Below, piece by piece: positions 32,554-44,595 of a stretch of DNA of 64,000 nucleotides. The translations under genes and the position numbers were made by a program. Source of the stretch: an uncultured Gemmatimonadota bacterium (GTDB lineage: Bacteria; Gemmatimonadota; Gemmatimonadetes; Palauibacterales; Palauibacteraceae); contig CAYXHP010000150.1 of the NCBI GenBank assembly GCA_964465015.1, positions 8,424 through 72,423 on the forward strand, in the 5' to 3' direction. Position 1 is the first letter of the stretch. Each line of letters starts with the position of its first letter. The notes under the pieces were generated by a model. The model did no database searches. It was given only the letters and a program-made list of their open reading frames with translations, and was not told where the DNA came from.

Positions 32554-34365
32554 CTACCGGTAGCGCCAGCCCATCGGCGCGTCCTTCGGTGCCTGCGACA
32601 CGATCCACTCCGCCATCTCCTTCAGGATCCCGGGCGTGGTGGTGTGCTGCCAGCCGTGGCTCTTTTCCGGCCTGCCGAAGTGGAAGGTCCCCGGGACGTG
32701 GGGGCCCGTGGTCGAGTCCATGAACGCCTGCAGCCGGTAGACGGCCAGGTTCAGGTAGAAGTTGTCGGCGTCCCCCACGTCGACGTGGATCTTCCCCTTC
32801 AGCTTCGGTCCGACCTCGGACCAGTGCTCGGCCAGGTACGCCCTGAGGTCGTAGCCGTGACGCTTCATGTACTCGGCCACCGAATGGTCGATATGCCCGG
32901 TGCGCTTGTCCCACAGGGGCTTCGGATAGCCCTCCTGACCGACCGGACCGAACACGGCCTCCCAGGCGTTGAGCTGCTGGCCCGAGCGGCCGTGGCTCCC
33001 GAGCACGGCCTCCAGCCGGCTGAACTCCCGCACCGACAGCACGGGCTGGCCGTCGGCCAGGCGCATGATGTAGCGCTCGGGGTGGCTCCACTCGGTCACG
33101 GGGGTGAACGGGAGCCCCCCGCCGGCCTGGTCGTTCTGGAACACGAAGGCGCTCGTGTCGCTGTAGATGTCCACCATGTCGTACGAGCGGAAGTCGACGG
33201 GATCCGGGTAGAGCGTCCACGTCCCGTCGAAGAAGTCCGGGTGGTAGACCTGGAGCGCGATGGACTCCCAACCACCCGTGGAGCCTCCGGTCAAAGTCCG
33301 CGCCCAGGGCTGGCGGATCATGCGGAAGTGGCTCTCGAGGTAGGGGATGAGCTCCTGCAGGATCGCGTCGCCGTACGGCCCGTCGTTGGCCGAGTTCACC
33401 GCGTAGGAGTCGTCGAAGTAGGGCGTCGGGTGCTGGAAGGTGACCGCGATCATGCGCGGGAAGCCGGGCGAGGTCCAGGCGAGGTAGAACTGGTGGCCGG
33501 TCTCGCGGTTCAGACTCGCGAACATGCTCGTGGCCCACGCGGGCATCGGCTGGCTGTCGGGGCTGAACCCGAACGGAGGCCGGAGGTTGAAGTGCCCCTG
33601 CTCGTACACCACCGGGTAGCGCACCTCCGGGTGCTTGTCGTAGCCCTTCGGCAGGAGCACCGTGGCCCCCAGGTACATCGGGTGGCCCCAGAACTTCGTG
33701 AGCAGATCGCTCTGGATCTTGACGTGCTTCACCCACTTCGTGTCCTCCGGCATCTCGATCGGCGGGATCTCGTGCCGGAGCTGGAGGGTCACATCCCACC
33801 CGGCGGCCGGGTCCAGGTGCACGTTCTGCACGTCGCTCACCAGGTTGCCCGGCGACGCATTGAACTGCTGACCCTCCCAGTGGTCCATGTGGGCCCAGAT
33901 CGTGTGCCCGTCGGAGCGCGGGAAGCGCGTGTACACGTTCAGGATTGCCTGGACGTAGTAGTCGCCGGCCGGGAGGTCCGAGAGGCGCTCGACCGGGTAG
34001 CCGGGCGTCGAGCCGTCGATGGTCGCCGCCTGCCCGGGCGAGAGGGAGTCCACGTCGACCGCGAACATCGGGATCGTCTGTACGAAGGAGCCCGCCTGGA
34101 GGCGCGGCGGGGGCGAGGATCGCCGGCTGATCACGACGAACATCCGCCCCGTGATCGGCCCGCGGTGGAGCGAGTCGGGGAAGCTCACGTGGAATGCCGT
34201 GCCAGCGGATCCGTCGCGCGTCACCGACCGCGCGGAGGATCCCGTCGAAGCCTGCGCCGGACGGCATCCGGACAGCGCCGCCGCCAGAGTCACGACCAGT
34301 CCCAGGGCCGCCGCGGCTCGCGACCTCGACACGCCACGCCCCCGGACGGCTCCGCTCGCACGCAT
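32554..34365 (-). CDS. Lipoprotein with alpha/beta-hydrolase 'putative esterase' domain
   Basis: ATG 34365 with a GGGGAGAG RBS. Lipobox AALSGC. Nucleophile-elbow-like [15 protein letters not shown] with the esterase-family (PF00756-like) context [14 protein letters not shown]. Confidence 0.65.
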
Positions 34366-34496
34366 GACTCTCCCCTCGGTTGGAGACGACTCCTCGGTGC
34401 GGCCTCGCGCCTCCCGCTCCCGCCCGGCGACTCCGCGCGGTGACGAGGGCACCCAGCATACGGGAGGGCTCCGCCCGCGGCGAGGGCCAACCGCCC

Positions 34497-34526
34497 TTGA
34501 ACCCCGTCCCGACAGCGGCGTACCAT
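34497..34526 (+). promoter_or_regulatory. Candidate sigma70-type promoter of the purE operon
   Basis: TTGAAC-N18-TACCAT, about 48 nt upstream of the purE ATG. Only a partial match to TTGACA/TATAAT. Confidence 0.35.
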
Positions 34527-34573
34527 GCGCCGAGTCCGGAGGCAGGGGACACGTGCACGAAAGCGGGAGGCCG

Positions 34574-35071
34574 ATGGCGAGCGCGCTGGTCGGGATCATC
34601 ATGGGCTCCACCTCCGACTGGGAGACGATGGAGCACGCGGTGCGGATCCTCGAGGAGCTTCAGGTGCCATTCGAGACCCGGGTGGTCTCGGCGCACCGGA
34701 CACCGGATCTCCTGTTCGAGTACGCCTCGACGGCGGAGGGACGGGGACTCGAGGTGATCATCGCGGGGGCCGGAGGGGCGGCGCACCTTCCGGGCATGAC
34801 GGCCTCCAAGACCGTCCTGCCGGTTCTGGGCGTGCCGGTCCAATCGAGGGCGCTGAGCGGGCTCGACTCGCTCCTCTCGATCGTCCAGATGCCGCGCGGC
34901 GTGCCGGTCGGCACGCTGGCGATCGGACGCTCCGGGGCCGTGAACGCCGCCCTCCTCTGCGCCGCGATCCTCGGCGCCTCCCACCCGGAGATCCGGGAGA
35001 GGCTCCGGAGCTACCGCGCCGAGCAGACCCGGGCGGTGCTGGAGGACTCGGAGCTCCCGAGCTCGACGTGA
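34574..35071 (+). CDS. purE: N5-carboxyaminoimidazole ribonucleotide mutase
   Basis: GGGAGG RBS. Motifs [14 protein letters not shown] and [10 protein letters not shown]. Confidence 0.95.
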
Positions 35072-36186
35072 AGGTCGGCATCCTCGGCGGAGGACAGCTC
35101 GGGCGGATGCTCGCCCTGGCCGGCTACCCGCTCGGTCTCGAGTTCCGTGTCCTGGACCCCAAGCCGGCCGCCTGTGCCGCGGACGTGGCGGAGCACCGAC
35201 AGGGCGACTACGACGACCCGGCGGCGCTGGACGCCTTCTGCGACGATCTCGACGTGGTGACCTACGAGTTCGAGAACGTCCCGCGGTCGGCGGCGGACCG
35301 GCTGGCCGGACGCGTCCCGGTCTACCCGCCGCCGCAGGCGCTCGACGTGGCCCAGGACCGGCTGGTGGAGAAGACGTTCTTCCGCGACCACGGAATCCCG
35401 ACCGCGCCCTTCGAGGCGGTGAGCACGCGGGAGGAGCTGGCCGATGCCCTAGACACGCTGGGGACGCCCGCGGTGCTCAAGACGCGGCGCTTTGGCTACG
35501 ACGGGAAGGGCCAGTTCATTCTCCACTCGCCCGGCGCGGCGGATGCCGCCTGGGAGGAGGTCGGTGGCCGTCCCCTGATCCTGGAGGGATTCGTCCCCTT
35601 TCGCCGCGAGCTGTCGATCCTCTCGGTCCGGGACCGGAACGGCGAGGTCCGGACCTATCCACTGGTCCACAACACGCACGCCGATGGCATTCTGGTGCGC
35701 TCGCGGGCACCCGTGCAGGACGTGGATGCTGATCTTCAGGCCACAGCAGCAGATTACGCATTACGCGTATTGAACGATCTGGAATACGTGGGGGTGCTGG
35801 CCATCGAGCTCTTCGAGCACGAGGGACGCCTGCTGGCCAACGAGATGGCGCCCCGCGTCCACAACTCGGGTCACTGGAGCATCGAGGGTGCGGAGACGAG
35901 CCAGTTCGAAAACCACGTGCGGGCGGTGGCCGGGCTGCCGCTCGGTCCCACCGACCCCGTCGGCACCAGCGTCATGGTGAACCTCATCGGGTGCGTGCCT
36001 CCGCTCGAGGCGATGCTCGCGGTCGAGGGGGCGCACGTGCACCTGTACGCCAAGTCGGCCCGACCCGGACGCAAGCTGGGGCACGTCACGGTGCGCGACC
36101 TCGATCCGGCGATCGCGCTCGAGCGCGCCGCCGTCCTGGAGGAGATGGTGGGGCGAACACCGGTCCGCGCCGGACACGACCGATGA
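35068..36186 (+). CDS. purK: N5-carboxyaminoimidazole ribonucleotide synthase
   Basis: GTG start overlaps the pur[16 protein letters not shown] and an ATP-grasp core ([28 protein letters not shown]). Confidence 0.92.
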
Positions 36187-36590
36187 GCCTCGAACCCGAA
36201 GCACCCGCTCCGGGGTATGTTACGGTGTGCGAGCTGGAGGAGCTCCAGGCGGGACGGGGGAAGCGTCTCCAGGTGGGGGACCGGTGGCTTGCGGTCTTCC
36301 TGGTGGACGGTACCGTCTATGCAATCGACGACCTGTGCCCTCACTCGGGGGGACCGCTCTCCGAGGGGACGGTCGACGGGCGTCGGGTGATCTGCTCCTG
36401 GCACTACGCGACGTTCGACCTGGCATCGGGAGAACGGCTGGACTCGATCTCCCGCTACGACGTCGATACGTATCCGGTCGTGGTGCGCGATGGTAGGGTG
36501 TGGGTGAAACCGGAGGAGTCGGTCGGCGAGGGTCCCGTCGGCGGCGACGCGCGGACGGTGGACGACGAGACGTCGGAGCGGACGACATGA
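36183..36590 (+). CDS. Small Rieske [2Fe-2S] ferredoxin-like protein (NirD-like)
   Basis: ATGA overlap with the purK stop. Rieske ligands CPH-x16-CSWH (CPHSGGPL...VICSWHYATF). Confidence 0.85.
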   Translation: MSLEPEAPAPGYVTVCELEELQAGRGKRLQVGDRWLAVFLVDGTVYAIDDLCPHSGGPLSEGTVDGRRVICSWHYATFDLASGERLDSISRYDVDTYPVVVRDGRVWVKPEESVGEGPVGGDARTVDDETSERTT

Positions 36591-37405
36591 CCATGCAGGG
36601 ACATGCGACGGCGGCGGGCCCGGAGCCCGAGCGGGAGATGTGGGAGCGGGCGGCACGCCTTCCCCCGCGGGATCCGACGGTCCGCATGTTCGAGAAGGAC
36701 TGGATGGAGCGCTTCTCGCGTGTCCATCCGCTCATTCCTCACGCGCTCTACGTTCCGCTCATCGGCTACATGGTGTGGCGCAGCCTGCACCTGGGCATGG
36801 GCGTGATAGCCACGCTCGGCCTCGCCGCTCTCGGCCTGCTGAGCTGGACCATCACCGAGTTCCTGCTCCACCGCTACGTCTTCCACGAGGTCGCCGACGA
36901 GAAGACCGAGCGCAGCGTCAAGCTCAAGGTGCACCGGTTGTCCCACGACGAGCCCATCCTGCCGGCTCTGGACGGCTGGCGGGAGAAGTTCTACTTCGTG
37001 GCCCACGGCGTCCACCACGAGTTCCCCAGCGACCCCCGACGGCTGGTCATGCCCCCGTCGGTGAGCATCCCGCTCGCGATCCTGTTCTTCACGCTGTTCA
37101 CGGTGACGCTGGGACCCCGCATCACGCCTGGCTTCTTCGCCGGCTTCGTGCTCGGCTACCTCATCTACGACAGCTTCCACTTCGCCATCCACTTCATCCG
37201 ACCGGGCGGGCGGATCGAGGAGACCATGTACCGCATGGGCAAGGGCCACATGCGCCACCACTTCTCGAACAACCGGCAGGACTTCGGCGTGAGCTCGCCG
37301 CTGTGGGACCTCATCGTCGGGTCGTACGACTGGCAGGAGAAGTCGCAGTTCTCCGGCCGGCTCCTGCGGCGCTGGATCCAGCGCCGGCGAGGTGCCGGCG
37401 ACTGA
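36587..37405 (+). CDS. Membrane fatty-acid hydroxylase superfamily protein (FA2H/Scs7-like, lacks cytochrome b5 domain)
   Basis: ATGA overlap with the Rieske gene stop. His boxes HRYVFHE, HGVHHEFPSDPRRLVMPP, HFAIH and HMRHHF. Confidence 0.8.
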   Translation: MTMQGHATAAGPEPEREMWERAARLPPRDPTVRMFEKDWMERFSRVHPLIPHALYVPLIGYMVWRSLHLGMGVIATLGLAALGLLSWTITEFLLHRYVFHEVADEKTERSVKLKVHRLSHDEPILPALDGWREKFYFVAHGVHHEFPSDPRRLVMPPSVSIPLAILFFTLFTVTLGPRITPGFFAGFVLGYLIYDSFHFAIHFIRPGGRIEETMYRMGKGHMRHHFSNNRQDFGVSSPLWDLIVGSYDWQEKSQFSGRLLRRWIQRRRGAGD

Positions 37406-37453
37406 GGTGTCGGAGGCGCGGTCGGCCGCCGGGGAAGGCGACCGGGGACGCGC

Positions 37454-38680
37454 TCAGGATTCGGTGGGGACCCCGAGCTCCAGGGCCGTGACCGGGTAGG
37501 GCTCGGCGAAGTAGTACCCCTGGCCGAACGTGCAGCCCCGCTCCCGCAACCGCTGGTGCTCCTCCCGCGTCTCGACCCCCTCGGCGGTGACTTCCAGGTC
37601 CAGCGTCCCGGCCAGCTGCAAAATGGACTCGACCAGGGCGCGATCGTCCTCGTCCTCTTCCATGCCGCGCACGAAGGCCCCGTCGATCTTGACCCCGTCC
37701 ACCCGCAAGTGGCGCAGCTGGCTCAGGGACACGAAGCCCTTCCCGAAATCGTCCACGGCGATCCGCACGCCCAGCCGCTTGAGCTCGGCCAGCTCCGATG
37801 AGGCCTCGCTGAGGGCCTGCTCGGTCACCTCGACCTGGAGGTCGCCGGGCTCCATGCCGCTCCGCCGCAGGAGATCCCGGAGCCGCTCCCTGAGGCCCGG
37901 CTGGCGGCACTGGGACGTGTCGAGGTTGACGCTCAGGAAGAAAACGGGGCTCGAGCCGAACCGCTCCTTCCAGGGAGCGTAGCGGCGGAGCGCCTCCTCC
38001 AGCACCCAGTTCCCCAGCGGCACCATGAGGCCGGCGCTCTTGGCGAGGGTCAGGAACTGGTCCGGGCTCATCAGTCCACGGGTCGGGTGCTCCCAGCGCA
38101 CGAGCGCCTCCACGCCGCGGACCTTGCCGTCCTCGAAGGCGACGATCGGTTGGTAGTGGAGACGGAGCTCGCCGTTCTCGATCGCCCGGCGCAGCTCGCG
38201 CCTCCAGCTCTCACCGGCGTCGATGCCGCGCGGGTCTCCGCCGGAACGCTGCAGCAGCTCCGAGACGGCTCCCGCCCCTGCGCTCACCACCAGCAGCGCC
38301 ACCGTGGCGACCCCGAACACCCACCAATTGATACGGCCGTCGAGGATCTCGCGCCCGAGGACCTCCGTCCCCGTCAGGGCCACCATCCCGCCCACGAGTG
38401 CGAAGGCAGCGCCGGCCCAACCCCGGTAGAAGGCCAGCAGGAACGGGGGAATGAGAGCCAGCACCCAGATGAAGCCCAGCACCGGTCCGTGCTGGGTCGG
38501 CCTCAGAAAGGCTGCCACGACCGCCGCGAGCAGGGCGAAGACACTGATGGCCAGCGCCCTGGGCGGCGTCGCTCCGCGACGCGGATGGGCCGGGACCGCC
38601 AGCTCCTGCCGGAAGGTCTCGGGCAGACCCGGTACCCGGTCCCGGACAACGTCCGCACCATCCCGCGACGAGTTCGTCAT
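37454..38680 (-). CDS. Membrane-anchored EAL-domain c-di-GMP phosphodiesterase
   Basis: About 4 N-terminal TM helices. Intact catalytic motifs (YQPIV, GVEALVRW, DDFGKG, EGVET, GQGYYF). No GGDEF domain. Confidence 0.88.
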   Translation of the reverse strand: MTNSSRDGADVVRDRVPGLPETFRQELAVPAHPRRGATPPRALAISVFALLAAVVAAFLRPTQHGPVLGFIWVLALIPPFLLAFYRGWAGAAFALVGGMVALTGTEVLGREILDGRINWWVFGVATVALLVVSAGAGAVSELLQRSGGDPRGIDAGESWRRELRRAIENGELRLHYQPIVAFEDGKVRGVEALVRWEHPTRGLMSPDQFLTLAKSAGLMVPLGNWVLEEALRRYAPWKERFGSSPVFFLSVNLDTSQCRQPGLRERLRDLLRRSGMEPGDLQVEVTEQALSEASSELAELKRLGVRIAVDDFGKGFVSLSQLRHLRVDGVKIDGAFVRGMEEDEDDRALVESILQLAGTLDLEVTAEGVETREEHQRLRERGCTFGQGYYFAEPYPVTALELGVPTES

Positions 38681-40734: not shown

Positions 40735-42216
40735 ATGATCGACTTCCTGCGACGCTTCGTGCTGTTCTGGGACCCCCTCCTGCTCTGGTATTTCGGGGCC
40801 CTGAACCTGTTCTACGGGGTCCTGTTCGCTCTCTCGGTGTTCGAGGTCTGGAAGCACTGGGCGCTGGCCTCGCGGCTCCGCCTCACCGGGCGCCTCTCCG
40901 ACGAGTCCTTCCCTCCCGTCTCGGTCCTCGTGCCGGCCTTCAACGAGGAGGCGGTCATCGTCTCGAGCGTCCGGGCCCTTCTTCGGCTGGACTATCCTTC
41001 CTACGAGGTGATCGTGGTGAACGACGCCTCCACGGACGGAACGTTGGGCCTGCTCGCCCGGACGTTCGACCTGTACAGCGTTCCCCCCGCGTTCACCCGC
41101 TCGGTTTCCACGCCGCCCGTCAGGGGTTACTACCGGTCGCGGACGGACCCGAGGCTCCTGGTGATCGACAAGGCGAAGGGGCCGATCGCCACGCGATCCG
41201 CTCCGCTGAACGTGGCGCTCAACGCATCGCGCTATCCGTACTGCGCGATCGTCGACGCCGACACGGTCATGGAGCGGAGCGCCCTGCGCCGCCTGGTGCG
41301 CATCCTGTTCGTGAGCCGGAAGCCCGTCGCGGGGACGGGGGGCACGATCCGCGTGGCCAACGGTGTCCGGTTCCGCGACGGCGTGCCGGTGATGCCGAGG
41401 GTTCCGCGCAACTGGCTGGCCTGCTTCCAGGTGCCGGAGTACTTCCGCGCCTTCCTGTTCGGACGGCTGGGCTGGAACCGGCTGGGCGGCAACATGCTCG
41501 TCTCCGGCGCTTTCGGACTGTGGCAGAAGCGGCTCATGCTGGCGGTGGGAGGCTACCGGGAGGACTCGATCGCCGAGGACCTGGAGCTCACCCTGAGCAT
41601 CCACCGTCTCATGTGCGAGCGCGGCGAGCGCTACGACGTGCCCTTCGTGCCCGATCCGGTCGTGTGGACCGAGGTGCCCGAGACGCTCGCCACCCTGGGC
41701 AGGCAGCGCGAGCGCTGGCATCGGGGGCTCCTCTCCACGCTCTTCCGCCACTGGCGCGTGTTCCTGAACCCGCGATACGGCGCCGTCGGGCTCCTCACCT
41801 TCCCCTATTACGTACTGGGCGAGATGCTGGCCCCGGTGATCGAGGTGATCGGCTACTGCGTGATCGCCGCCGGACTGTGGCTGGGGCTCCTGGACGTACC
41901 CTATGCCCTCCTCTTCTTCGGTCTCGCTTTCGGCTACCAGATGCTGCTCTCGGTGGGCGCCGTGTGGCTGGAGTTCCTCACCTTCCGCGTCTACCCACGC
42001 GCGACGGACTATGCGCGCATGCTCCTGTTCGCCCTGCTCGAGCCGATCGGCTACCGGCAGCTCACGGTGTGGTGGCGGCTCCGGGGCTTCGGGAGCTTCC
42101 TGCGCGACGTGGGGGGATGGGGCAAGCAGGAGCGCAGGGGCTTCGAAGCGGTCGAGAAGGAGCCGGTCCCGGCCACGTCAATCGACCCCGGGACGGGTCC
42201 GAACATCGACGCTTAG
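40735..42216 (+). CDS. Processive family-2 glycosyltransferase (PgaC/IcaA/NodC-like polysaccharide synthase)
   Basis: Motifs VLVPAFNEE, VNDASTDGT, VDADT, AEDLELT and the Q/RxxRW motif GRQRERWHRG. TM helices at both ends. Confidence 0.85.
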   Translation: MIDFLRRFVLFWDPLLLWYFGALNLFYGVLFALSVFEVWKHWALASRLRLTGRLSDESFPPVSVLVPAFNEEAVIVSSVRALLRLDYPSYEVIVVNDASTDGTLGLLARTFDLYSVPPAFTRSVSTPPVRGYYRSRTDPRLLVIDKAKGPIATRSAPLNVALNASRYPYCAIVDADTVMERSALRRLVRILFVSRKPVAGTGGTIRVANGVRFRDGVPVMPRVPRNWLACFQVPEYFRAFLFGRLGWNRLGGNMLVSGAFGLWQKRLMLAVGGYREDSIAEDLELTLSIHRLMCERGERYDVPFVPDPVVWTEVPETLATLGRQRERWHRGLLSTLFRHWRVFLNPRYGAVGLLTFPYYVLGEMLAPVIEVIGYCVIAAGLWLGLLDVPYALLFFGLAFGYQMLLSVGAVWLEFLTFRVYPRATDYARMLLFALLEPIGYRQLTVWWRLRGFGSFLRDVGGWGKQERRGFEAVEKEPVPATSIDPGTGPNIDA

Positions 42217-42381
42217 CCGGAGCGGCCGGCCGAACGGGTACAAGGCCACCGGGACGGCGACGGTCCGACACTCGAAGGCCGGGTTGGCCAGCCGCCCCGC
42301 TGCCTGTACGTTGCGGGCCGGCCCTTCCATCTTCGGGAAGGGCATGGCTCGCGGATTGGCGATACCGAGAGAGGGAGGCCC

Positions 42382-43167
42382 GTGCCTGGATTCGGCGTTC
42401 TCGCGCACCCGTGGTGGGTACCGGTCCTTTGGATCGTGGTCCTCGGTCATATCACCAACATCTGCAACACGTTGTATCTGCACCGCGGGGTCACGCACGG
42501 CGGGGTCGAGTTCAGCCCGCTGGCGAAGCACGTCATGCGCTTCTGGCTGTGGCTCACGACCGCCATCGTGACCCGCGAATGGGTCGCCGTCCACCGAAAG
42601 CACCACGCGTTCGCCGACCGCGAGGGGGACCCACATTCCCCCGAGGTGGAGGGCCTGTGGCCGATCCTCCTGGCCAACGTGTTCTTCTACCGCAAGGCGG
42701 CCAGTGACGCGGAGATCCTGGAGAAGTACGGCGAGGGCTGTCCCGAGGACTGGATCGAGCGCAACCTGTACCAGCGCTACCGGGCGCTCGGCATTCTCGT
42801 CATGCTCCTCCTGGACACCTATCTGTTCGGTCCCCTCGTCGGACTGATCGTTTGGTCGGCGATGACGGTGTGGATCCCGATCTTCGGAGGGGTGATCAAC
42901 GGCATCGGCCACGCCAAGGGCTACCGGAACTTCGGGACCCACGATCGCAGTCACAACATCTACCCGTGGGGCATCTGGATCCTGGGCGAGGAGCTGCACA
43001 ACAACCACCACGCGGATCCGCGCTCGGCCAAGTTCAAGGCCCACTGGTGGGAGTTCGACATCGGCTGGATGTACATTCAGCTCCTGCGCCTGTTCGGGCA
43101 GGCGAAGGTGATCTACGCGCGGACGGAGAGCGTCGAGGCGTTCGCGCGAAAGCACTACGGAGGCTGA
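42382..43167 (+). CDS. Acyl-CoA/acyl-lipid (delta9-type) fatty-acid desaturase
   Basis: GTG start after GAGAGGGAGG. His boxes HRGVTH, HRKHHAFAD and HNNHHADP. Confidence 0.82.
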   Translation: MPGFGVLAHPWWVPVLWIVVLGHITNICNTLYLHRGVTHGGVEFSPLAKHVMRFWLWLTTAIVTREWVAVHRKHHAFADREGDPHSPEVEGLWPILLANVFFYRKAASDAEILEKYGEGCPEDWIERNLYQRYRALGILVMLLLDTYLFGPLVGLIVWSAMTVWIPIFGGVINGIGHAKGYRNFGTHDRSHNIYPWGIWILGEELHNNHHADPRSAKFKAHWWEFDIGWMYIQLLRLFGQAKVIYARTESVEAFARKHYGG

Positions 43168-43224
43168 CGCCGGCCCACGGCGTCCGGCCCCGACCTCGAC
43201 CTCCGGTGGGCGCCTTGCAGACCG

Positions 43225-44595
43225 GTGGTGCGAGACATGAGCATGCGTGAGGCCTCCATCGGCACCCGGCCCGCGGGCCGCGACATCCCCCGGACGGGAG
43301 ACGGGGCCGGGCCGCGCCGGACGGTCGCCGACCCCCGGGTCGACATCTGCCGCCGCATGTTCGACCGGCTGCTCGGTCCCGCCGAGACCCGCGACTTCGC
43401 CGTCCGGTACTGGACCGGTTTGTCGGAAGGTCCGTCCGACCCGGTCTGCACCCTGGTCCTCCGCTGGCCGGGCGCGCTACGACGAATGTTGCTCCCTCCC
43501 ACGGAGCGATCGCTCGGCGAGGCCTACGTCTTCGACCACTGCGACGTGGAGGGCGACCTGGAAGCGGCGGTTCGCGTGCTCGCGCCCGCGTTGCACGACG
43601 TGTGGTCGCCCCGCCGTCTGGCGGAGCTGGCGGTGATGCTCCGGCGTCTGCCCGCCCGCCGGAACACGCGCGACGCCCCTCCCGGCGAGGCGATGGGGCG
43701 CGCGGGACCGACCCGTCGCGGCCGGCTCCACTCCCGGAACCGGGACGCCCGCTCGGTCCGGTTCCACTACGATCTCGGGAACGACTTCTACGCCCTGTGG
43801 CTCGATCCGTACATGCAGTACTCCAGCGGCTACTTTCCGCGGGGCGACGAGTCGCTGGAGGAAGGGCAGAAGTGCAAGCTGGACCTCCTGTGCCGGAAGC
43901 TGCAGCTCGAGCCCGGGCAGCGCCTCCTGGACATCGGCTGCGGGTGGGGCGGTCTGATCCGCTTTGCGGCCGAGCGCTTCGGCGTCCGGGCCACGGGGAT
44001 CACGCTGAGCGAGCCGCAGGCCGAGTTCGGCCGGCGACGGCTCGCGGAAGAGGGCCTCGCGGACCGGTGCGAGATCCGGGTGATGGACTACCGGGACCTT
44101 CCGGATCCGGAGCGCTTCGACGCCATCGTGAGCGTCGGCATGGTCGAGCACGTGGGTCGCGGCAAGCTACCCGAGTTCTTCGGGGCTGCTTTCCGCCACC
44201 TGGTGCCCGGAGGGCTGTTCCTGGACCAGGGGATCGTCACGCTGGACGACACGCGCCCGTGGCTGCGCCGGCTGCGGGAACGCGTGCTCGACCGCTGGAC
44301 CAGCTTCATCGAGAGCCACGTGTTCCCCGACGGCGAGCTGGTGACCACTGGGGAGCGACTCGCCCCCGCCGAGGCGGTCGGCTTCGAGACGCGGGACGTG
44401 ACCAGCCTCAGGGAGCACTACGCCACCACGCTCCGCCACTGGGTCGGGCGCCTGCAGGCCGCCCGCGAGGAGGCCGTGGCCCTGGTCGGACGTCCCACGT
44501 ACCGGGTGTGGGAGCTGTACATGGCGGGCTCCGCATACGGCTTCGCCTCGGGTCGGATCGGGGTCGTCCACGAGGTCTACCGAAGGCCCACCTGA
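43225..44595 (+). CDS. Cyclopropane-fatty-acyl-phospholipid synthase family methyltransferase
   Basis: FHYDLGNDFYALWLDPYMQYSSGYF and SAM motif LLDIGCGWGGL. Exact start is uncertain (several in-frame ATGs at 43225-43243). Confidence 0.85.
   Translation: MVRDMSMREASIGTRPAGRDIPRTGDGAGPRRTVADPRVDICRRMFDRLLGPAETRDFAVRYWTGLSEGPSDPVCTLVLRWPGALRRMLLPPTERSLGEAYVFDHCDVEGDLEAAVRVLAPALHDVWSPRRLAELAVMLRRLPARRNTRDAPPGEAMGRAGPTRRGRLHSRNRDARSVRFHYDLGNDFYALWLDPYMQYSSGYFPRGDESLEEGQKCKLDLLCRKLQLEPGQRLLDIGCGWGGLIRFAAERFGVRATGITLSEPQAEFGRRRLAEEGLADRCEIRVMDYRDLPDPERFDAIVSVGMVEHVGRGKLPEFFGAAFRHLVPGGLFLDQGIVTLDDTRPWLRRLRERVLDRWTSFIESHVFPDGELVTTGERLAPAEAVGFETRDVTSLREHYATTLRHWVGRLQAAREEAVALVGRPTYRVWELYMAGSAYGFASGRIGVVHEVYRRPT

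Follow-up and report, generated by a model that had tools for sequence, protein, structure and literature searches.

Does a small Rieske protein serve as the dedicated electron donor of a bacterial membrane hydroxylase, and what have two genes of purine biosynthesis to do with this couple? The question is raised by a locus within a 64,000-nucleotide stretch, called the window in the following, of contig CAYXHP010000150.1 from an uncultured bacterium of the Gemmatimonadota family Palauibacteraceae. The source genome (G000) is a metagenome-assembled genome (MAG) of ~3.5 Mb and 92% completeness, whose nearest relatives in the databases bear the annotation Gemmatimonadota. At this locus, purE and purK are followed by a gene for a small Rieske-type ferredoxin and by a gene for a membrane hydroxylase resembling the fatty-acid 2-hydroxylases Scs7p and FA2H. 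The initial annotation, made from the letters of the window and their translations, had described four co-directional genes chained by GTGA and ATGA overlaps. This arrangement is borne out by the sequence, the translations, and the Pfam and NCBIfam matches: purE and purK share the GTGA at 35068–35071, purK and the Rieske gene the ATGA at 36183–36186, and the Rieske and hydroxylase genes the ATGA at 36587–36590.

The pairing of the Rieske protein with the hydroxylase is real, specific, and conserved, and it has a single origin in a narrow uncultured clade. That electrons pass from NAD(P)H through a reductase and the Rieske protein to the hydroxylase, which would thereby 2-hydroxylate the acyl chain of a sphingolipid-like lipid, is a reading to which even chances are given. 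The linkage of the pair to purE–purK is a genus-specific accident of position.

The pair was traced in 41 related genomes of the order, including the families f1 (24 genomes) and f2 (16 genomes), and in metagenome contigs. A member of the hydroxylase family occurs in 18 of the 41 genomes, and a close orthologue (72–78% identity) in five: the window genome, the three other genomes of its genus (g1), and G011 from another genus. A Rieske orthologue (E 1e-36 or better) is present in the same five genomes and in no others, always directly upstream of the hydroxylase gene. All nine metagenome contigs that carry both a hydroxylase of at least 74% identity and upstream DNA likewise show the pair, and every hydroxylase of at least 72% identity with upstream DNA (window genome, four relatives, nine contigs) has the Rieske gene directly upstream. 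The Rieske orthologues are 51–65% identical and are found only beside hydroxylases of this group, herein called the long clade. Of the ten loci measured outside the window, nine have the two genes overlapping by 4 nt or separated by 4 nt; the start in locus L081 is uncertain.

What stands upstream of the pair varies. In all four g1 genomes and in eight metagenome contigs it is purE–purK; G011 has the pair as a unit of its own, with a diverging unknown gene on one side and a converging gene on the other; and in locus L085 (JABAHQ010001102.1) the stop codon of a serine palmitoyltransferase (SPT) gene overlaps the Rieske start. At the compared loci no conserved gene follows the pair. Since the gene upstream varies and none is conserved downstream, the Rieske–hydroxylase pair is the functional unit. 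The linkage to purEK also illustrates that tight overlaps can arise by accidental docking; hence, an overlap alone is not evidence of a functional link.

The Rieske-linked hydroxylases form one clade (SH-aLRT, the approximate likelihood-ratio test of the Shimodaira–Hasegawa type, 90) that is sister to a clade of 59% identity, and the linked Rieske proteins form one clade as well (SH-aLRT 94). As both proteins form single clades, the pairing arose once and was then co-inherited. The co-occurrence of the two genes, to which the initial annotation had tied its proposal, is thus upheld by the retention of the pair in all loci of at least 72% identity, by its three upstream contexts, and by the co-inherited clades.

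The hydroxylase belongs to the FA2H/Scs7 type. It contains the His boxes HRYVFH (95–100), HGVHH (140–144), HFAIH (198–202), and HMRHH (221–225), which align to the Scs7p motifs HxxxxH, HxxHH, HxxxH, and HxxHH that ligate the di-metal centre. Ten histidines (H95/H100, H140/H143/H144, H198/H202, and H221/H224/H225) are invariant in an alignment of 18 homologues. The only significant sequence matches in the PDB are Scs7p entries, 4zr1 (4e-18) and 4zr0 (1e-17), although overall identity to Scs7p is only ~28%. An AlphaFold2 model (pLDDT 76, pTM 0.73; of low confidence around the fourth His box, residues 221–229) exhibits four long hydrophobic helices that are predicted to span the membrane, and its Foldseek matches are chains of 4zr0 and 4zr1 only (probability 1.00, TM-score 0.60); model and matches agree with the four-transmembrane fold of Scs7p. 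Homologues are annotated as ceramide fatty-acyl 2-hydroxylase by other sources. PF04116 is the sole Pfam match, and no cytochrome b5 domain is present, so that the earlier description of an FA2H/Scs7-like hydroxylase lacking this domain is confirmed by the Pfam, PDB, and Foldseek matches. The b5 domain is not a defining part of the catalytic family, since plant members are also devoid of it (PMC10002949). Particular to the clade are an N-terminal extension of ~25 aa and a basic C-terminal helix, RWIxxRRR, which is conserved in the Rieske-linked clade and missing from the 59%-identity clade.

The family to which this enzyme belongs is large. It comprises 2420 clusters at 50% identity (E <=1e-3) and at least 590 loci in species-representative genomes of Gemmatimonadota, Ignavibacteria, Bacteroidota, Acidobacteriota, Nevskia, and others. 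Fused domains were examined by Pfam in the ten longest of the 150 best 50%-cluster representatives, and only Cyt-b5, FA_desaturase, and Mpo1-like domains were found. Among these fusions, P0272 combines FA_hydroxylase with an Mpo1-like 2-hydroxy-palmitate dioxygenase domain (373 aa) and P0137 combines FA_hydroxylase with FA_desaturase (539 aa). Read from the domain names, the Mpo1-like fusion suggests that a 2-hydroxy fatty acid is made and then alpha-oxidised in one protein, and it lends independent support to a 2-hydroxy fatty-acid product of the family. A separate search of the hydroxylase against longer proteins returned one DUF6695 fusion.

The Rieske protein carries all four cluster ligands in the motif C52-P-H54-x16-C71-S-W-H74, is devoid of a signal peptide and of a transmembrane segment, and ends in an acidic tail. 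With its CxH...CxxH motif and a length within ~100–135 aa, it is a small soluble Rieske ferredoxin. Its best NCBIfam matches are the ferredoxin subunits HcaC (70 bits, cut-offs 113 and 150) and AndAb (54 bits, cut-off 150), which like NirD (67 bits, cut-off 75) and the MocE family TIGR02377 (49 bits, cut-off 136) stay below their cut-offs; hence, the protein belongs to none of these named equivalogs. In the PDB it matches best the naphthalene dioxygenase ferredoxin and CarAc (3e-13 to 2e-12), and also BphF. When plasmids were searched with it by tblastn, the matches consisted of Rieske fusion proteins and unannotated DNA, and no moc locus was reached.

Several relatives of the Rieske domain occur in other architectures. 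In family f2 genomes (L049, L051, L054, and others), ~40%-identical Rieske domains end open frames of ~360 aa. The search against longer proteins returned one 362-aa Rieske-only protein, P0125 of Planctomycetota, whose score of 209 bits against the 135-aa query suggests tandem Rieske domains. In G009:C85:5036-6445 and G022:C181:652-2049, a Rieske domain lies just upstream of, and is possibly fused to, a homologue of Pyr_redox_2 ferredoxin reductases, with frames of 550–565 aa.

A ferredoxin of this kind could have other clients, above all a Rieske oxygenase. The window genome encodes three Rieske domains: a protein of the suf operon, a likely bc1-type subunit, and the protein encoded at 36183–36590; three are likewise found in each of the other three g1 genomes. 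The first of these is a 104-aa protein (G000:C80:63885-64139; L073:1462-1776, minus strand), which can be assigned as a suf-operon Rieske ferredoxin because it is encoded between sufD-like and sufS-like genes. In the four g1 genomes no Rieske terminal oxygenase was found, and no Rieske domain resides in an oxygenase-sized protein. Within the genus of the window, the ferredoxin is thus without another obvious client.

A reductase is encoded elsewhere in the genome. The window genome contains one ferredoxin reductase of the Pyr_redox_2 plus Reductase_C type (C41:18353-19579), whose best NCBIfam matches, HcaD and AndAa, naturally work with ferredoxins of the HcaC and AndAb types. It lies on another contig than the pair, and reductases of its type occur in 20 of the 24 f1 genomes, with or without the pair, and in none of the 16 f2 genomes. 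Not linked to the pair and common throughout the family, it is a plausible but not a specific candidate, and its presence was rejected as a discriminating marker of the hydroxylase on the same counts. A second Pyr_redox_2 protein, with an AIF_C-type C terminus (G000:C72:61979-63112; L190:2652-4652, plus strand), is 40% identical to the C41 reductase; it occurs only in the four g1 genomes among the relatives searched and adjoins argG and argH.

Gene order and homology are the grounds on which we infer that electrons are transferred, which reductase takes part, and what substrate is hydroxylated at which position. NAD(P)H would reduce the unlinked HcaD/AndAa-like FAD-dependent ferredoxin reductase of contig C41, which in turn would reduce the cytoplasmic Rieske ferredoxin that is co-translated with the hydroxylase. 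The Rieske protein would then dock to the hydroxylase from the cytoplasmic side and supply the di-iron centre with two electrons in succession, thereby taking the place of the cytochrome b5 of eukaryotic FA2H. The docking site may be electrostatic, formed by the basic C-terminal helix RWIxxRRR of the hydroxylase and the acidic tails of the Rieske proteins, which is speculation from the two sequences. The di-iron centre would activate O2 and place a hydroxyl group on an acyl chain, by homology at C-2 of a ceramide-like lipid. In the genus of the window, transcription of purE–purK probably reads through into the pair; a scan of 34300–37700 for promoters and terminators found none on the plus strand, which is neutral as to read-through.

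Compared with the known members of its family, the hydroxylase described here is distinguished by its presumed donor. FA2H of animals, fungi, and protists carries an N-terminal cytochrome b5 domain, whereas plant FAH1/FAH2 have no fused b5 (PMC10002949). With Scs7p, FA2H, FAH1/FAH2, and myxobacterial Fah, the hydroxylase shares the four-transmembrane di-iron fold, the four His motifs, and an LVMPP segment, and with the plant enzymes also the lack of a fused cytochrome b5. It differs from Scs7p and FA2H by a ~35-aa insert between His boxes 1 and 2, common to the bacterial family, by its clade-specific N- and C-terminal extensions, and by a donor that, judged from the gene arrangement, is apparently a co-translated Rieske [2Fe-2S] ferredoxin instead of cytochrome b5. 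According to a review, myxobacterial FA2H homologues function as 2-hydroxylases and are connected with the formation of sphingolipids (Ring et al. 2009, via PMC10002949). The same review describes bacterial FA2H activity without naming a donor, and the sole in vitro FA2H assay that it cites uses free fatty acids. In the literature searched, no physiological donor of bacterial FA2H homologues is named, and neither a Rieske donor for an FA2H-type enzyme or for the fatty-acid-hydroxylase superfamily nor a reconstituted electron-transfer chain for an FA2H-type enzyme was found. The view that a Rieske–FA2H pairing had not been described before therefore agrees with the literature search, which found no such donor. 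Donors of the superfamily and its sister families comprise cytochrome b5, plant-type ferredoxin, rubredoxin, and fused ferredoxin and reductase (in part covered by PMC10002949 and PMC8918992). Rieske proteins go unmentioned in a 2022 review of donors, which names rubredoxin, ferredoxin, and cytochrome b5 (PMC8918992).

Rhizopine catabolism involves the MocD/MocE/MocF "ferredoxin oxygenase complex" (Bahar et al. 1998, cited in PMC10107442 and PMC5132102), in which, as reported in the papers citing it, an FAD reductase and a small Rieske-type ferredoxin serve a membrane His-box di-iron oxygenase. As far as these accounts go, this complex is the nearest functional precedent, and the principle of a Rieske protein feeding a membrane His-box di-iron oxygenase is already known from it. 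MocD, a member of the FA_desaturase sister family (PF00487) and not of PF04116, acts on a methylated cyclitol instead of a lipid. The oxygenase described here matches PF04116 only, its ferredoxin falls below the MocE cut-off, and the candidate reductase lies on another contig. In toluene-4-monooxygenase (T4mo), the Rieske ferredoxin T4moC can reduce a soluble carboxylate-bridged di-iron hydroxylase (PMC4200526). By analogy, the system described here would work like MocDEF and T4mo while being a member of neither. Among HcaCD, AndAaAb, naphthalene dioxygenase (NDO), and CarAcAd, its ferredoxin is closest to HcaC/AndAb and its candidate reductase to HcaD/AndAa; however, the three-component Rieske oxygenases and T4mo differ in that no Rieske terminal oxygenase exists in the genus of the window and the electrons are presumed to go to an integral-membrane enzyme with a His-ligated di-iron centre. 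AlkB-type alkane hydroxylases, likewise membrane His-box di-iron enzymes, resemble the pair in that a small iron-sulfur protein is their dedicated donor, either from an adjoining gene or fused (PMC8918992), but enzyme family and donor type differ. That the hydroxylase is the first PF04116 (FA2H/Scs7) member with a dedicated Rieske donor replacing cytochrome b5, and that together with an HcaD-like reductase it would provide 2-hydroxy-acyl sphingolipid-like lipids in Gemmatimonadota, is put forward tentatively, at slightly less than even chances.

Indications of the lipid come from two loci with SPT or SPT-like genes and from the window genome itself. The SPT gene that is coupled to the pair in L085 (L085:18-890, plus strand) matches NF047599 with 444 bits over a fragment of 290 aa; the contig begins inside this gene, so that the rest of the operon lies outside it. 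In a Chthoniobacterales MAG (JBBRQE010000100.1; L175:3948-6137, plus strand), an FA2H-like hydroxylase gene is followed after ~210 nt by an alpha-oxoamine synthase gene on the same strand, whose product matches the SPT-like protein of the window genome (E 1e-78). This locus is a second, independent link of the hydroxylase family to SPT-like genes. The SPT-like alpha-oxoamine synthase of the window genome (G000:C152:33642-34811, minus strand) reaches 533 bits against SerpalmtaseCFB, the model of Bacteroidota-type SPT (cut-off 640), and stays below every curated SPT cut-off. The gene downstream of it (L189:5505-6896, minus strand) encodes 464 aa with weak matches to GNAT acyltransferases, and judged from these similarities the two genes may form a ceramide-like or aminolipid pathway. 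The synthase has an orthologue in 40 of the 41 genomes of the order; because it is near-universal, it says little about the hydroxylase, and it was rejected as a discriminating marker for the same reason.

The reading of a dedicated Rieske donor has to be weighed against three others. One is that the four genes constitute a unit linking purine biosynthesis to lipid hydroxylation or to redox state, for which it speaks that all four overlap in the window and that their order is kept in the g1 genomes and eight metagenome contigs. This is highly improbable. The two purine genes are a class I purE/purK pair, as both equivalog models are exceeded and the adjoining genes overlap, and since purE yields one match above cut-off in a whole-genome search and is the sole true copy, they are housekeeping purine genes. 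Their own 4-nt overlap is kept at every related locus with purEK, whereas the spacer between purK and the Rieske gene ranges within the genus from −4 nt in the window to ~100–170 nt. The purK orthologues (79–83% identical) lie upstream of the pair solely in g1, and the pair does without purEK in G011 and L085. Moreover, we know of no biochemical connection between purine biosynthesis and lipid hydroxylation. The purine coupling, which the initial annotation had found odd, is therefore not a functional peculiarity.

A weightier alternative, although an unlikely one, is that the Rieske protein is a ferredoxin of general use, or one with another task, that is merely co-transcribed, and that the hydroxylase relies on the generic donor of other bacterial FA2H homologues. 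The clients of the ferredoxin might then be the two FA_desaturase-family enzymes of the window contig, which are the two other His-box enzymes of the genome, or an unrelated process. Several observations weigh for this alternative and against a dedicated donor. Neither the sister clade of 59% identity (L087/L107) nor any of 76 more distant family members in species-representative genomes carries a Rieske gene within 6 kb, the genome of the sister clade having only a 47%-identical one located elsewhere; the non-linked members examined include relatives of 38–50% identity in several phyla. Enzymes of this family hence generally use unlinked donors, and as almost all other members are without a linked redox gene, generic donors must suffice for them. 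Nor does a Rieske gene lie within 1.5 kb of the more distant members found across 301 genomes of the phylum. The expectation that the genes be linked in other genomes thus holds within the long clade and fails in the sister clade and in these 76 members. Ferredoxins 47% identical to the Rieske protein exist in G012 without the hydroxylase and in G332 unlinked to it, the fusion searches revealed no Rieske–hydroxylase fusion, and the unlinked, widespread reductase and the near-universal synthase below its cut-offs add no specificity. In addition, the pairing arose only once, within a narrow clade, so that inertia could account for part of its conservation. Against the generic donor stands that the Rieske orthologue is limited to the five searched genomes with a long-clade hydroxylase, always directly upstream of it, and that the junction has stayed at −4 or +4 nt at nine of ten non-window loci despite the divergence of the Rieske proteins to 53–65% identity and two changes of the flanks. 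A comparison of the clustered neighbours of 80 family members yielded recurrent genes (KaiC-like ATPase, GH9, thiamine pyrophosphate (TPP) enzyme, SNF, PFK), which were rejected as a functional clue because they reflect lineage synteny in Ignavibacteria; a motif scan of family-member neighbours found no consistently adjoining rubredoxin, ferredoxin, or b5 gene.

A third alternative, rated slightly lower again, accepts the pair as a genuine couple of donor and enzyme that acts on another substrate or position, such as a sphingoid base, an ornithine lipid or other aminolipid, a hopanoid, or a carotenoid. The PF04116 superfamily also includes sterol and sphingoid-base hydroxylases. Carotene hydroxylases belong to it as well, and a model based on Scs7p fits one of them (PMC7176425). 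A stem of 1.26 substitutions per site separates the clade from the remaining members of the family; it allows for a change of substrate and so counts against 2-hydroxylation. The additional N- and C-terminal segments and the low identity to Scs7p also favour this alternative. Nevertheless, the sequence and fold matches in the PDB are to Scs7p only, homologues are annotated elsewhere as ceramide fatty-acyl 2-hydroxylases, an Mpo1-like 2-hydroxy-fatty-acid dioxygenase is fused to a member of the family, and in L085 the pair is preceded by a translationally coupled SPT gene.

The features of the locus are collected in Table 1. The frames of the four genes were selected by a G+C content at third codon positions (GC3) of the coding type together with database support; since the G+C content of the region is ~70%, most of the listed open reading frames are spurious. 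The initial annotation let the locus begin at 34497, where no in-frame start of purE exists, and the start shared with the orthologues is the ATG at 34574. Further downstream in the window, at 40735–44595 (plus strand, 3–7 kb downstream and outside the operon), lie genes for a GT2 glycosyltransferase with weak similarity to Glyco_transf_21, a DesA-family desaturase, and a protein of the cyclopropane-fatty-acid-synthase family. A second FA_desaturase-family gene is located at 846–2003 of the window, and the contig is rich in lipid-tailoring genes.

Table 1. Genes of the locus and its flanks, with positions in the window.
Feature	Position	Strand	Support
purE, N5-carboxyaminoimidazole ribonucleotide (N5-CAIR) mutase, 165 aa	34574..35071	+	PF00731 1e-64; TIGR01162 219 bits (cut-off 150)
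purK, N5-CAIR synthase, 372 aa, GTG start	35068..36186	+	NF004679 452 bits (cut-off 326); PF22660 + PF02222 + PF17769
Soluble Rieske-type [2Fe-2S] ferredoxin, 135 aa	36183..36590	+	PF00355 2e-17; PF13806; PF22543
Scs7/FA2H-like integral-membrane di-iron hydroxylase, 272 aa	36587..37405	+	PF04116 54.4 bits (cut-off 31)
Esterase-like gene, upstream flank, divergent	32554-34611	-	
EAL phosphodiesterase gene, downstream flank, convergent	37454-38680	-	

A hydroxylase that is always co-translated with one specific ferredoxin represents, together with a reductase, a ready-made minimal system for expression, spectroscopy, and structure determination. If the reading of a dedicated Rieske donor is true, Rieske ferredoxins would join cytochrome b5, plant-type ferredoxin, and rubredoxin, as well as MocE for MocD, as donors of His-box membrane di-iron enzymes, and a defined, reconstitutable electron-transfer chain would become available for a bacterial FA2H. 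For the organisms themselves, the linkage of the pair to SPT in L085 adds to the case for sphingolipid-like lipids in Gemmatimonadota.

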